Origin: Thermoanaerobaculia bacterium
GTDB lineage: Bacteria > Acidobacteriota > Thermoanaerobaculia > Multivoradales > JBJKRB01
Reading direction: 5' to 3'
Assembly (NCBI GenBank): GCA_046704885.1
Contig: JBJKRB010000158.1
Span: 46,400-110,399, forward strand
Length of the DNA: 64,000 nucleotides
Below are positions 1 through 53,344 of the stretch, piece by piece; position 1 is the first letter of the stretch; each line of letters begins with the position of its first letter. The position numbers were made by a program, and so were the translations under genes. The notes under the pieces were generated by a model, which was not told the origin of the DNA, ran no database searches, and worked only from the letters and a program-made list of their open reading frames with translations.

Positions 1-124
1 TTTCAGCGAGAGCGGCCAGCATCTCCGCGCGCACGGTTTCGTTGAGCGCGTTCATCTTGTCTGGCCGGTTGACCGTGAGAATCGCTACGCGTCCTTCTCG
101 TTCCATCAGAATCGCTTCACCCAT
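1..124 (-). CDS. enoyl-CoA hydratase/isomerase family protein (N-terminal 41 aa only; rest lies beyond window start)
   Basis: Reverse-complement of 1-124 translates from ATG at 124 to MGEAILMEREGRVAILTVNRPDKMNALNETVRAEMLAALAE, a typical crotonase N-terminus. It lies directly downstream of the stop of the 165-965 gene. Not in the ORF track because it is shorter than 60 aa. Confidence 0.5.
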   Translation of the reverse strand, partial: MGEAILMEREGRVAILTVNRPDKMNALNETVRAEMLAALAE

Positions 125-5372: not shown

Positions 5373-7202
5373 CTAGTCCGCTTCTCGCTCGAGCGAACAA
5401 CAGTGGGGGGCCGAAGACGGCGATGTCTCGGCCTCGAGGACGCTGCCACGGGTTGGATTCGGGCGGAAGGTGGTGCAACCTTTGAGGCTGCGCTCGTAGG
5501 CGAGACGATAGAGGTTGCGGAAGCTTTCGAAGGGATAATTCTCGGGGATGTTGAGCGTCTTCGAGATCGCGCTGTCCACGAAGGGCTGAAGCGCCGCTTG
5601 CATGGCGAGGTGCTTCTCCGGTTCGATCTCGCGCGCGGTGGCGAAGATGTCGCCGGGAGGCGCTCCATTCCCGAGGTCGGCCCAACGCGCTACCGCGTCG
5701 TCCGTGACCTCGAACTGGCGAGGACCCGACACGCCGACGACTCGGCGCGTGTAGCGCCGGGCGAAGACCGGTTCGAGCCCGCTCGATACGTTGTTGGCCA
5801 GCACACTGATCGTCCCCGCCGGGGCGATCGCGGTGAGGTGGCTGTTGCGGATACCGTGCGTGGCGATCGCTTCTCGGACCGCTGCCGGGAGGGCGGCGAT
5901 GAATTCGCCTTCGAGATAGGGTTTTTGCTCGAATTCGGGAAAGGGTCCCTTCTCTTCGGCGATCTGGGTCGAGGCGAGGTAGGCGCTGTGGCAAATTGTT
6001 CGCATGGCCTGCGCCGCGATCTCTCGCCCTTCGGCGCTCGCATAACCGCGGCCGAGAAGGATCAGCGCGTCCCCGAGACCCGTGATCCCGAGTCCCACCC
6101 GCCGCGAGCGGCGGGCCCGTTGCGCCTGGTGCTCGAGCGGGAAATCCGAAGCGTCGATCACGTTGTCGAGCATGCGAACCGCGATCCTGGCGGTGGCGCG
6201 AATGCCCTCGAGGTCGAGACTTGCCGCAGGGCTGAACGGATTGCGCACGAAACGGGCGAGGTTGATCGATCCCAGGTCGCAGGCGCCGTACGGCGGCAGG
6301 GGGATCTCGCCGCATGGATTGGTCGCCGAGATCTGTTCCCGGTAGGCCAGGTTGTTGACTTCATTGATGCGATCGATGAAGAGGACGCCGGGCTCCGCAG
6401 TCTCGTAAGTCGAGCGCATCAAGCGATCCCAGAGGCGTCGCGCCGGGACCACGCGGATGACGCGGCAGGGTACCGGCTGGTCGGTTCCAGACCAACGCCG
6501 CCATAAGACCCTATCGTCGGCGGGCTGACTTCCTGCTTGCTCGCCGACGTCGGTCGAGAGCGGGAAGACAAGGGGCCACTCGTCGTCGCGTTCGATCGCC
6601 GCCATGAGCTCATCGGTCACCAGCAGCGACAGATTGAAGTTGACGAGCTCGCCGGGCGAGTGCTTGGCCGCAATGAACTCCTCGACGTCGGGATGGTCGC
6701 AGCGCAGGGTCGCCATCATGGCTCCGCGTCGCGCTCCGGTCGATAGCATGGTGGCGCACATGGCGTCCCACACCCTCATGAAGGACACCGGTCCGGAAGC
6801 CACGGTGCCGGCGCTCACGGCGGGGGCGCCGCGTGGCCGCAGGGTGGAGAAGTCGTACCCCACGCCGCCCCCTTGTTGCATCGTAAGAGCGCCTTCCTTG
6901 AGCGCCTGAAAGATGCCGTCCAGAGAGTCTTCGATCGTACCCATTACGAAGCAGTTGAAGAGGGTCACCCGGTGAGGGTTTCCGCATCCCGCGAGGATGC
7001 GGCCGCCGGGCAAGAAGCGGAAGTCGCGCAGGATGGAGAGGAACTCCTCTTCCCGCTGGGAGCGCCCGGCGGACTCCACGGCGGCCAGGGTGGTGGCCAC
7101 GCGTTGCCACGTCTCTTCGATCGAGGCTTCGCCGTCGAGCCGGTACTTGCTCTTCCAGATCTGCTCGGAGAGCTCGTTGGTGAAGGGGCCGCGGTCCGGC
7201 AC
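5373..7202 (-). CDS. nrdJ: adenosylcobalamin-dependent ribonucleoside-diphosphate/triphosphate reductase (class II RNR)
   Basis: 609 aa. ATNPCGEI active-site motif, glycine-rich GGGVGYDFS, C-terminal Cys pair (PHCCSLE). Start is GTG at 7202 with GGAGG 12-13 nt upstream. Confidence 0.88.
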   Translation of the reverse strand: MPDRGPFTNELSEQIWKSKYRLDGEASIEETWQRVATTLAAVESAGRSQREEEFLSILRDFRFLPGGRILAGCGNPHRVTLFNCFVMGTIEDSLDGIFQALKEGALTMQQGGGVGYDFSTLRPRGAPAVSAGTVASGPVSFMRVWDAMCATMLSTGARRGAMMATLRCDHPDVEEFIAAKHSPGELVNFNLSLLVTDELMAAIERDDEWPLVFPLSTDVGEQAGSQPADDRVLWRRWSGTDQPVPCRVIRVVPARRLWDRLMRSTYETAEPGVLFIDRINEVNNLAYREQISATNPCGEIPLPPYGACDLGSINLARFVRNPFSPAASLDLEGIRATARIAVRMLDNVIDASDFPLEHQAQRARRSRRVGLGITGLGDALILLGRGYASAEGREIAAQAMRTICHSAYLASTQIAEEKGPFPEFEQKPYLEGEFIAALPAAVREAIATHGIRNSHLTAIAPAGTISVLANNVSSGLEPVFARRYTRRVVGVSGPRQFEVTDDAVARWADLGNGAPPGDIFATAREIEPEKHLAMQAALQPFVDSAISKTLNIPENYPFESFRNLYRLAYERSLKGCTTFRPNPTRGSVLEAETSPSSAPHCCSLEREAD

Positions 7203-7209
7203 CGGGTGG

Positions 7210-8247
7210 TCAGCCTCCGATCTGGACGAAACTCTGTAGGTTGCCGCTGGATCCCTCGTGCAGCCGATGCTGCTCCGGTTTGACCCGCATCAGCTCGAGA
7301 ATGCGGCGACGCAGCGCCTCCTCGGGGTGATCCGTGCTCAGAAGGTGGCGCAGGGGATAGTCGCGCTCGGCGAAGAGGCAGAGCCGCGCCTCACCCCGGG
7401 CGGTGAGTCGCAGGCGGCTGCAAGTGCTGCAAAAGCTGTGAGACATGGGGCTGATGAAACCCAGCGTTCCGAGGAAGCCGGGAATCTGAAAGACCCGGGC
7501 CGGGCCGTTTCCGATCTTCTCGCTCGCCGGCATGAGACGTCCGAAGCGGGCCTCGATGCTGCTTCGCGCCGCAACCGCGGAGAGGAAGCCTCGAGCCGTC
7601 AACTCCTCGTTGGCCGGAGTCGCCATTAGCTCGATGAAGCGGACGGAAAGGGGAAGGCGGCGGGTGAGCTCCACCATCCGGTCGATGTCCGCTTCATTGA
7701 TGCCGGCCAGCAATACCATGTTGAGCTTCACGGGATCGAATCCGGCTTCGAGCGCGGCTCGAACCCCCCTCCAAACCCGCTCCATGTCGCCCCTGCGAGT
7801 CACGGCGAGGAAGGTTTCCGGATCCAGACTATCGAGGCTCACATTGACCCGTCGTATCCCTGCCGCGCGCAGTGCCGGCGCCATGCTCTCCAGAAGCATG
7901 CCGTTGGTCGAGAGGGCAAGGTCTTCGACACCCGGTATCCTCGCGACGCGGCGCGCGATCTCGAGAACGTCCTTGCGCACCAGGGGCTCGCCTCCGGTGA
8001 TCCGGAGGCGGCTGATGCCGAGGGAGACAAAGGCTCGAACCATCGTCTCGAGCTCGTCGGGAGCGAGAAATCTACGATCGCCGTAAGGAAACTCGGCGTC
8101 GGCCGGCATGCAGTACTGACAACGAAGGTTGCAGCGGTCGGTCACTGAGATCCGCAGGTAGTCGAGCCGGCGTCCGAAGGCGTCGATGAGGGCTGCGGGC
8201 TCAGTCGGCGCCGCCCGCTCCTCGGCGGCTGTGGCTACGGCGCTCAT
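7210..8247 (-). CDS. moaA: GTP 3',8-cyclase MoaA (radical SAM; molybdenum cofactor biosynthesis)
   Basis: 345 aa. CNLRCQYC radical-SAM cluster motif, C-terminal second-cluster cysteines (CSTCSRLRLTARGEARLC), GG C-terminus. Confidence 0.9.
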   Translation of the reverse strand: MSAVATAAEERAAPTEPAALIDAFGRRLDYLRISVTDRCNLRCQYCMPADAEFPYGDRRFLAPDELETMVRAFVSLGISRLRITGGEPLVRKDVLEIARRVARIPGVEDLALSTNGMLLESMAPALRAAGIRRVNVSLDSLDPETFLAVTRRGDMERVWRGVRAALEAGFDPVKLNMVLLAGINEADIDRMVELTRRLPLSVRFIELMATPANEELTARGFLSAVAARSSIEARFGRLMPASEKIGNGPARVFQIPGFLGTLGFISPMSHSFCSTCSRLRLTARGEARLCLFAERDYPLRHLLSTDHPEEALRRRILELMRVKPEQHRLHEGSSGNLQSFVQIGG

Positions 8248-8296
8248 CTGAGGGTTATTCTAGCCCGCTGGCGGACTCGTTTCCCTCGGGGCGCGC

Positions 8297-8348
8297 TTGA
8301 CCCCCCGCTCGTGGTGTCCGTACAATCCGATATTCTTCCGTACGGACA
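8297..8348 (+). promoter_or_regulatory. near-consensus sigma70 promoter (TTGACC-18nt-TACAAT) overlapped by a 9-bp perfect inverted repeat (TGTCCGTAC-N16-GTACGGACA)
   Basis: TTGACC 8297-8302, TACAAT 8321-8326. Inverted-repeat arms 8315-8323 and 8340-8348. ATG of the downstream ORF at 8352. Confidence 0.6.
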
Positions 8349-8351
8349 GTC

Positions 8352-9083
8352 ATGATCACGGGCTACAACACAGACGTCAAGCATGGTGAAGTGGTCTTTC
8401 ACGTTCAGACGGAAGACAAGGGGGAGTCCAATCCCTGGGTCGAGAGCCTGATCTACGTAGGTGGGAGGGTCGTTGCGTCGAAGCGAGCTAGTTACGCGGA
8501 ACTGCTCAAAGATAGCTCGGACACTCAGTTCATCATGGCGTTGATGGAGCGCCAGCACCGCCTGATGATCGCCGCGATCCGCAACGGTCGCCTCGACGGC
8601 AGGCTGCAGGAGCTCGGCTTGGCGCAAGCGGGGACCGGGCGGGCGGTGCAAGCCGTGGCGAGCTCCGGCTCGAGCCACGGTGCGGAGCTCGCGCCCGCGA
8701 CGAGTGGCGAAGATGGTGGTGGCGAGGAAGGCGCGGCCCCGAGCCTGGATCAGGTCATCCTCGATTACCTGACCAACGAGGCGAGTCAGGAACAGCTCGA
8801 GCTTCATCTAGATCTCGGCGCTGACCTGGCGCTGGGACAGCGGACGGAGCTCAAACTCTCGACAACGGCCAGCAAGTCGCAGCGGCCGGTCGCCGCCGCG
8901 ATGGTGATCGTCAAGATGATTTCGACGGTGCGCGAACCGGTGACGCTCGCCGAGGGTGCGACGGATGGCGACGGGCGCCTCGATTTGACCATCGAAGTTC
9001 CCGCTCTGGAGCGAGGCACGGCCGCCCTGATCATCACCGCGACGAGCGAGCTCGGCAACGCGGAGATGAAGCATCTCCTGTGA
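8352..9083 (+). CDS. conserved hypothetical protein (243 aa); no family recognised
   Basis: Long ORF in the coding-strand context immediately downstream of the strong promoter. Stop overlaps the RBS region of the ThiS/MoaD-like gene. N-terminal ITGYNTDVKHGEVVFHVQTEDKG. Acidic low-complexity middle. Beta-rich C-terminus. Confidence 0.6.
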   Translation: MITGYNTDVKHGEVVFHVQTEDKGESNPWVESLIYVGGRVVASKRASYAELLKDSSDTQFIMALMERQHRLMIAAIRNGRLDGRLQELGLAQAGTGRAVQAVASSGSSHGAELAPATSGEDGGGEEGAAPSLDQVILDYLTNEASQEQLELHLDLGADLALGQRTELKLSTTASKSQRPVAAAMVIVKMISTVREPVTLAEGATDGDGRLDLTIEVPALERGTAALIITATSELGNAEMKHLL

Positions 9084-9100: not shown

Positions 9101-9346
9101 ATGTCCGGGGATCAGGATTCAGTGGAAATTCAGCTCAACGGCGCGGCGCGGCACGTGCCTGCCGGTGTGACCGTGGCGGATCTCCTCGCGGATCTAGGGT
9201 TCGATTCCCGTACGGTGGCGATCGAACGCAACGGTTCGATCCTCGCGCGCGACCGGTTTGAAAAGGTGGATCTAGAGCCTGGCGATCGCCTCGAGATCGT
9301 GCGTTTCGTGCAGGGTGGACGCGGTTGCAGTCGCGAAGCCGATTGA
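9101..9346 (+). CDS. ThiS/MoaD-family sulfur-carrier (ubiquitin-like beta-grasp) protein with 8-residue extension after the Gly-Gly
   Basis: ATG 9101 preceded by GGAAGGAAG. 81 aa, VEIQLNG...VAIERNGSIL...GDRLEIVRFVQGG followed by RGCSREAD. Pattern matches ThiS (MQIxxNG...INQ.IV...GD.I...GG). Confidence 0.7.
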   Translation: MSGDQDSVEIQLNGAARHVPAGVTVADLLADLGFDSRTVAIERNGSILARDRFEKVDLEPGDRLEIVRFVQGGRGCSREAD

Positions 9347-9364
9347 GTATAGTTTGCGGCGCGT

Positions 9365-53306: not shown

Positions 53307-53344
53307 ATTCTAGCAGAGCGGGCGGCTCGAGCTGCTGCTAGAAT
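53307..53344. promoter_or_regulatory. 10-bp perfect inverted repeat ATTCTAGCAG-N18-CTGCTAGAAT in the purB/arcA divergent intergenic region; candidate operator for the arc operon
   Basis: Seen in sequence. About 60 nt upstream of arcA ATG 53403. Confidence 0.45.

Follow-up and report, generated by a model that had tools for sequence, protein, structure and literature searches.

Repressors of the LacI, TetR and LexA types bind palindromic operators that overlap promoters, and an operator with a long spacer is found in the E. coli BirA/bioO system. Where the half-sites of an operator lie on one face of the helix, their centres are about 10-11 or 21 bp apart. RomY of Myxococcus xanthus is a co-GAP of the MglA/MglB polarity switch, and its N-terminal domain is the part with which it stimulates MglB, the GAP of the small GTPase MglA (PMC9481161). 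A gene for a protein with this domain lies divergently from moaA in the stretch of Thermoanaerobaculia DNA analyzed here (64 kb, termed the window), and the region between the two genes had been read as a near-consensus σ70 promoter overlapped by a 9-bp perfect inverted repeat that serves as an operator. We found that the description of the DNA is accurate, in that the positions of both hexamers, the 18-nt spacer between them, both arms of the repeat and the ATG at 8352 were all confirmed, and that the feature is an ordinary, well-conserved σ70-type promoter. With a probability of about 0.72, positions 8296-8327 are the genuine promoter of a two-gene romY-like/thiS operon and the 9-bp repeat is most likely non-functional, a reading that rests on sequence comparison. 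The features are collected in Table 1.

Table 1. Features of the romY-like/thiS and moaA region of the window, and of the corresponding regions of relatives (L numbers denote orthologous loci)
Feature	Positions	Strand	Remarks
Class II-type ribonucleotide reductase gene	5373-7202	-	
moaA (GTP 3',8-cyclase)	7210-8247	-	TIGR02666, 357.8 bits (cutoff 284); Radical_SAM and Mob_synth_C
Likely moaA -10 box, TAGAAT	8266-8261	-	13 nt from the moaA ATG (8247); no good -35
-35 block, CTTGACCCC	8296-8304	+	hexamer TTGACC, 8297-8302; romY-like/thiS promoter
Left arm of the repeat, TGTCCGTAC	8315-8323		8 of 9 bases equal the family promoter consensus tGTYCnTAS
Spacer element TGTCCG	8315-8320	+	directly 5' of the -10; family consensus t-G-T-(T/C)-C-n
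-10 block, TACAAT and a conserved C	8321-8327	+	hexamer 8321-8326; romY-like/thiS promoter
Predicted transcription start	8332-8334	+	6-8 nt past the -10, from σ70 geometry; leader of 18-20 nt
10-bp palindrome, TCCGTACGGA	8337-8346		overlaps the right arm
Right arm of the repeat, GTACGGACA	8340-8348		exact reverse complement of TGTCCGTAC (9/9); in the leader
romY-like gene	8352-9083	+	243 aa; RomY N-terminal domain, disordered linker, C-terminal macroglobulin-like β-sandwich
thiS (sulfur-carrier protein)	9101-9346	+	second gene of the operon; TIGR01683, 73.1 bits (cutoff 37.45); PF02597
Promoter-like TTGCAG-17-TATAGT	9325-9353		directly upstream of tRNA-Lys
tRNA-Lys(CTT)	from 9365	+	
tRNA-Leu(TAG)	from 9535	+	
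tig, clpP, clpX		+	downstream of the tRNA genes
Right arm in L081, GCTCGGACA			81% protein identity; 6/9 complementary to its own left arm
Right arm in L082, GTTTGGACA			81% protein identity; 7/9; contig-end bases, not relied on
Right arm in L083/L084, CCCAAGAGT			79% protein identity; no complementarity
Moco riboswitch, L008	2698-2824		between moaA and the romY-like gene
Moco riboswitch, L067	2777-2905		between moaA and the romY-like gene
Moco riboswitch, L018, L052, L040 and others			between moaA and the romY-like gene

The first 82 residues of the 243-aa protein match NF053858, the NCBIfam model 'RomY N-terminal domain-containing regulatory protein' (E = 4e-29; 100.9 bits, cutoff 50). The AlphaFold2 model has a mean pLDDT of 81, the disordered linker spans residues 93-127, and the C-terminal domain gave Foldseek matches to MG/Ig-like domains of the PDB library. 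The protein has 1928 homologues, which, where named, come from metagenome-assembled genomes of Thermoanaerobaculia (Acidobacteriota), and the succession of RomY N-terminal domain, linker and β-sandwich is conserved across this class. The label 'Ubl operon' given to the locus in the original prediction thus holds for its second gene, thiS, and not for its first, which codes for the RomY N-terminal-domain protein.

Two observations concern the flanking genes. A sulfur carrier requires a free GG end. The ThiS of the window has eight residues past its C-terminal GG (RGCSREAD; CSCRREAL in L081 and L082), and many relatives end at GG; this survey followed a crude longest-ORF rule, and its results can be trusted only within the window clade and for ORFs that end in GG. 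Because of the requirement for a free GG end, either ThiS needs processing or the tail is a quirk of annotation or sequence. The tail overlaps the -35 of the tRNA-Lys promoter. On the opposite strand, 7 nt separate moaA from the class II-type ribonucleotide reductase gene behind it, an unusual pairing, and in L081 moaA also has a close downstream gene. This arrangement suggests that moaA and the ribonucleotide reductase gene are co-transcribed.

The TTGACC/TACAAT pair in front of the romY-like gene has a consensus score of 10/12, and the end of its -10 lies 25 nt from the ATG, on the same strand. Sites that score at least 10/12 occur three times on the two strands of the window, against 0.47 ± 0.76 in random sequence, and the more specific pattern TTGAYY-N16-18-TASAAT occurs once in the window and was absent from 100 shuffled versions. 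The ATG at 8352 is the true start, since the N-terminus MITGYNTDV is invariant among homologues (31 were compared). A literature search for an Acidobacteria promoter consensus or for start-site maps returned nothing relevant.

The promoter was then compared with its counterparts in 80 loci from GTDB species genomes, 80 from metagenomes and four contigs of the window clade. A TTGNNN-16..19-TANA[AC]T pattern was present in 114 of 143 distinct orthologous upstream regions, with a spacer of 17 nt in 81 regions and of 18 nt in 23, and the sequence of the spacer was variable. The consensus of the 114 regions is C-TTGA(T/C)(T/C)-CC ... C-t-G-T-(T/C)-C-n-TA(G/C)AAT-C. Of the positions directly before the -10, -5 is a G in 78 of these loci, -4 a T in 93, -3 a T or C in 106 and -2 a C in 90. 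When both strands of the 669 kb of fetched DNA were searched with TTG[AC]YY-N16-18-TASAAT, 111 of 113 matches fell 0-200 nt upstream of an orthologous ATG. Within the window clade, CGCTTGACCC at the -35 and TACAATCC at the -10 are invariant, and the adjacent bases vary. A constant distance between two conserved blocks, combined with a spacer that is free to vary, indicates purifying selection on the promoter. The call of a near-consensus σ70 promoter is therefore borne out by its score, by its rarity relative to chance in the window, and by the blocks and spacing found upstream of orthologues. That this promoter is conserved class-wide upstream of the orthologous romY-like gene is strongly supported by the alignments. 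The promoter at 8296-8327 appears to be of the housekeeping type (σ70/σA class), the sigma factor and the transcription start being predictions. RNA polymerase holoenzyme would recognize CTTGACC as the -35 and TACAAT as the -10, 18 nt apart, and transcription would begin near 8332-8334. The resulting leader would be about 20 nt long, and its only motif for ribosome binding is a weak GGA.

The conserved bases outside the hexamers (C-TTGAYY-CC and C-tGTYC-n-TASAAT-C) raise the question of whether the block pair is recognized by a conserved regulator or an alternative sigma factor, in which case the left arm of the repeat would be part of an older site. These non-hexamer positions are conserved in 78-95 of the 114 loci, the motif is almost exclusive to the romY-like gene in the 669 kb, and in many relatives a GATTC...GAATC dyad lies between the -35 and -10 blocks. 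The window clade, with TTGACC and TACAAT, however, lacks this dyad, no regulator is known, and a conserved pair of blocks with a variable spacer is normal for a promoter that is inherited by descent. The promoter of tRNA-Lys in the same genomes provides a comparison: it is equally conserved but of a different flavour (GTTGTCAcC-N17-TATGATCC in relatives). The difference in flavour favours a special site at the romY-like gene, but the flanks of the tRNA promoter are conserved in the same manner as those of the romY-like promoter. On balance we consider a conserved-regulator or alternative-sigma site quite unlikely, and the plain housekeeping-type promoter remains our reading.

We then turned to the inverted repeat. 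Its arms, TGTCCGTAC and GTACGGACA, are separated by 16 nt, with three bases (8349-8351) between the right arm and the ATG, and they span the -10 and the predicted start region, thereby overlapping the contacts of RNA polymerase. Relative to the -10 hexamer, the left arm extends from -6 to +2, and the TGTCCG spacer element forms its outer two thirds. The GGACA of the right arm contains GGA (8344-8346), the weak and only Shine-Dalgarno-like motif of the leader. The inner GTAC is self-complementary, and TCCGTAC is also present as a direct repeat (8317-8323 and 8337-8343). Complementarity between the two arms is made easier by this self-complementary GTAC and by the Shine-Dalgarno-like GGACA.

The window contains 16 distinct perfect inverted repeats whose arms measure at least 9 bp and whose spacer is 0-30 nt; Markov-1 random sequence gives 15.4 ± 4.0, and 10 of 615 tiles of 104 nt contain one. 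The frequency in the window is that of random sequence, and a reader who scans 64 kb would expect to meet several such repeats. Taken locally the repeat is unusual, with P = 0.0012 in the -35-to-ATG stretch (58 nt) and P = 0.0064 in the 104-nt intergenic region, and a 10-bp perfect palindrome such as TCCGTACGGA has, by simple arithmetic, a chance of about 9% of occurring in the 104-nt region. Neither the full site nor TCCGTACGGA occurs a second time in the 64-kb window. The half-site with at most one mismatch was detected 12 times, against 6.3 expected, which is a borderline enrichment, and these half-sites were never paired. The regulon that had been envisaged, in the form of further TGTCCGTAC-N16-GTACGGACA copies, did not materialize in the window, which was the DNA searched. 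The centres of the half-sites are 25 bp apart, or about 2.4 helical turns, which places the half-sites on different faces of the helix; the geometry had been called typical of a dimeric repressor, but this spacing is unusual for a simple dimeric repressor of the helix-turn-helix type.

The window clade consists of only two independent close lineages, L081/L082 and L083/L084, which were found through homologous proteins; a scan of metagenome contigs yielded no closer relatives, the best having 57% identity. As listed in Table 1, the right arm is not preserved in either lineage. In L081 the outer TGTCC/GGACA pairs are retained. Over the 114 orthologous promoter regions, the longest inverted repeat averaged 5.3 bp, against 5.0 bp after shuffling, and no recurrent motif was found. 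The original prediction had named conservation upstream of orthologous operons as a check, and the repeat does not have it, with 6/9 in L081, no complementarity in L083/L084 and no recurrent repeat in the 114 regions.

Some further observations were made on the leaders of relatives. L081 (1358-1423) and L082 (1-66) differ at 8 of 66 upstream bases, and their 732-nt coding sequences are identical; the discrepancy reflects either errors at a contig end or a hypervariable promoter-proximal segment. A CCGTAC that follows the -10 by 8-15 nt in one distant clade (L008, L013, L024, L050 and others) was considered as a right-arm element shared with the window, and was rejected because intermediate clades lack it and its positions differ. 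In several distant romY-like orthologues (L002, L026, L045, L046, L089 and L133) the leader has inverted repeats of 7-8 bp that start 4-10 nt after the -10. They may form stabilizing stem-loops at the 5' terminus of the predicted mRNA, and their sequence is unrelated to that of the window repeat.

These data bear on an operator confined to this lineage, where a dimeric or tetrameric repressor would bind TGTCCGTAC-N16-GTACGGACA, or just the palindrome TCCGTACGGA (about +5 to +15), and would block the binding of RNA polymerase or its escape from the promoter. A perfect dyad over the -10 and the start region is in the right place for a repressor to act, its local probability is low (P = 0.001-0.006), its outer pairs persist in L081, and dyads with long spacers do exist, as general knowledge of the E. 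coli BirA operator attests. With only two independent close lineages compared, a recent species-specific operator is possible, and it may postdate a possible loss, in this lineage, of the Moco riboswitch described below; the absence of that riboswitch here and its presence in relatives make another control of the region conceivable. Against such an operator, the repeat is unconserved in relatives of 79-81% identity and elsewhere in the family, and its left arm is fixed by promoter function, so that only the right arm is informative. The window-wide frequency is at the level of chance, the palindrome alone has the 9% chance given above, there is no second site in 64 kb, and the 25-bp spacing of the centres puts the arms on different faces. 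The genes examined in the neighbourhood code for metabolic enzymes, the RomY-like protein, ThiS, MoaA and ribonucleotide reductase, and no DNA-binding regulator is among them. We therefore regard a lineage-specific operator as unlikely. The promoter-occluding dimeric-repressor operator of the original prediction is not supported by a repeat that is unconserved, whose left arm is the promoter core, whose frequency equals chance and which has no second copy in the window. Our preferred reading is that the repeat is probably a chance by-product of promoter plus leader sequence: the left arm would be the conserved promoter core tGTYCnTAS, and the right arm a piece of fast-evolving leader that happens to be complementary to it in this lineage.

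On the opposite strand, TAGAAT at 8266-8261 is likely to be the -10 of moaA, an assignment derived from position and conservation: the box is conserved as TATT(C/G)TAGC in L081 and L083 (in the form TACAAT). At distant loci, a Moco riboswitch immediately follows ATTGTA or ATTCTA, which is 16-31 nt away from the plus-strand -35. Of 20 distant loci tested, 17 have the riboswitch (RF01055, 48-61 bits) on the minus strand beside the divergent moaA, and its core motif was found in 47 of the 71 loci where moaA is divergent. The window gave no RF01055 match at the gathering threshold (36 bits), and no match with E ≤ 10 was found in 8150-8450, and the idea of a riboswitch remnant was rejected; no other Rfam family matched at the repeat. 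The window, L081 and L083 lack the riboswitch. All three have the same -10 on the minus strand at a distance of only 10-13 nt from the moaA ATG, so that their moaA would be nearly leaderless.

The repeat is located about 61-94 bp upstream of the inferred moaA start, outside the core promoter, and a protein bound to it could therefore not occlude the moaA promoter. The proposal that one regulator gates both genes is not supported, as moaA has a likely -10 of its own and, in distant relatives, its own riboswitch. The romY-like gene and moaA would each have a separate promoter, the two lying back-to-back, and the minus-strand one would drive moaA with almost no leader. For most family members, moaA is controlled in cis by its own Moco riboswitch, back-to-back with the romY-like promoter, and the intergenic region of the window is best described as two separate promoters. 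Elsewhere in the window, at 53307-53344, a 10-bp perfect inverted repeat, ATTCTAGCAG-N18-CTGCTAGAAT, consists of two outward-facing TAGAAT -10-like boxes and may represent another divergent promoter pair.

The absence of the riboswitch from the window allows a bolder version of the operator, in which the riboswitch was lost in this lineage and a newly evolved protein operator (the 34-bp dyad or TCCGTACGGA) took over the divergent region. If true, this would be a replacement of RNA-based by protein-based control caught in the act. We consider it very unlikely.

The repeat might also function in RNA, as a hairpin, if one transcript included both arms. Such a transcript could be plus-strand read-through, in which an extended stem (8310-8354) would sequester the start codon, or a long moaA leader, transcribed from a minus-strand site, TTGACG-17-GATCAT (8380-8352), inside the romY-like gene. 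Folding of the plus-strand segment 8310-8355 gives -17.7 kcal/mol (z = -3.0), with the AUG region paired; for the minus-strand leader the value is -41.1 kcal/mol (z = -2.8), and the minus-strand site is promoter-like with a score of 9/12. These folds are stable, however, only for assumed transcripts that lack support. The left arm contains the -10, so that an mRNA from the conserved promoter would not include it, and neither a co-directional upstream gene nor a promoter is available for read-through, moaA being divergent. The minus-strand site falls within the invariant MITGYNTDV codons, which makes its conservation uninformative, its own -10 is poor, and a better, conserved -10 adjoins moaA. 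The arms are unconserved and show no compensatory changes in relatives, and the repeat has no Rfam match. An intrinsic terminator is not indicated either, since no T-run follows the stem on its 3' side and the terminator scan lists none at the repeat. A functional RNA hairpin is in our view highly improbable, and the repeat is better regarded as fortuitous.

The analysis provides a well-supported promoter annotation for an uncultured lineage of Acidobacteriota, a finding of little weight in itself, and illustrates that a textbook-looking "operator" can arise where a conserved promoter core meets an unconstrained leader. A more useful by-product is the class-wide conserved promoter motif of the RomY-like gene. 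Another is the contrast at moaA, where the Moco riboswitch of more distant relatives is missing from the close ones, whose moaA would be almost leaderless. The ThiS tail beyond the GG motif ranks with these two among the most interesting side observations.

Among the known systems, operators of the LacI, TetR, LexA and BirA kinds share with the window a perfect dyad over the -10 and the start, in a divergent region beside a cofactor-biosynthesis gene. The window repeat differs from them in being unconserved, in having no further copy in 64 kb and no cognate regulator among its neighbours, in the 25-bp distance between its centres, and in that one arm is the promoter itself and only one of the two promoters is covered. 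With ModE-type operators, which the original prediction had brought up and which are known at moaA promoters of E. coli, the only shared feature is the moaA neighbourhood: the window repeat lies upstream of, and not over, the likely moaA core promoter, and no ModE-like gene was present among the neighbours examined. The region also corresponds to the genomic place of the Moco riboswitch, which in most distant Thermoanaerobaculia relatives is found between moaA and the romY-like promoter, but the riboswitch is absent from the window and its close relatives, and the repeat is unrelated to it. The resemblance to σ70 group 1 promoters extends to the hexamers, the 18-nt spacer, the position 25 nt upstream of a verified start codon and a spacer that varies among orthologues. 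The extra bases (a C before and CC after the -35, GTYC at -17 to -14, and a C after the -10) are family-specific here, and there is no essential difference from σ70-class promoters. As in other back-to-back divergent promoters, the divergent gene would be served by a second -10, which lies 30 nt from the -35 on the opposite strand.
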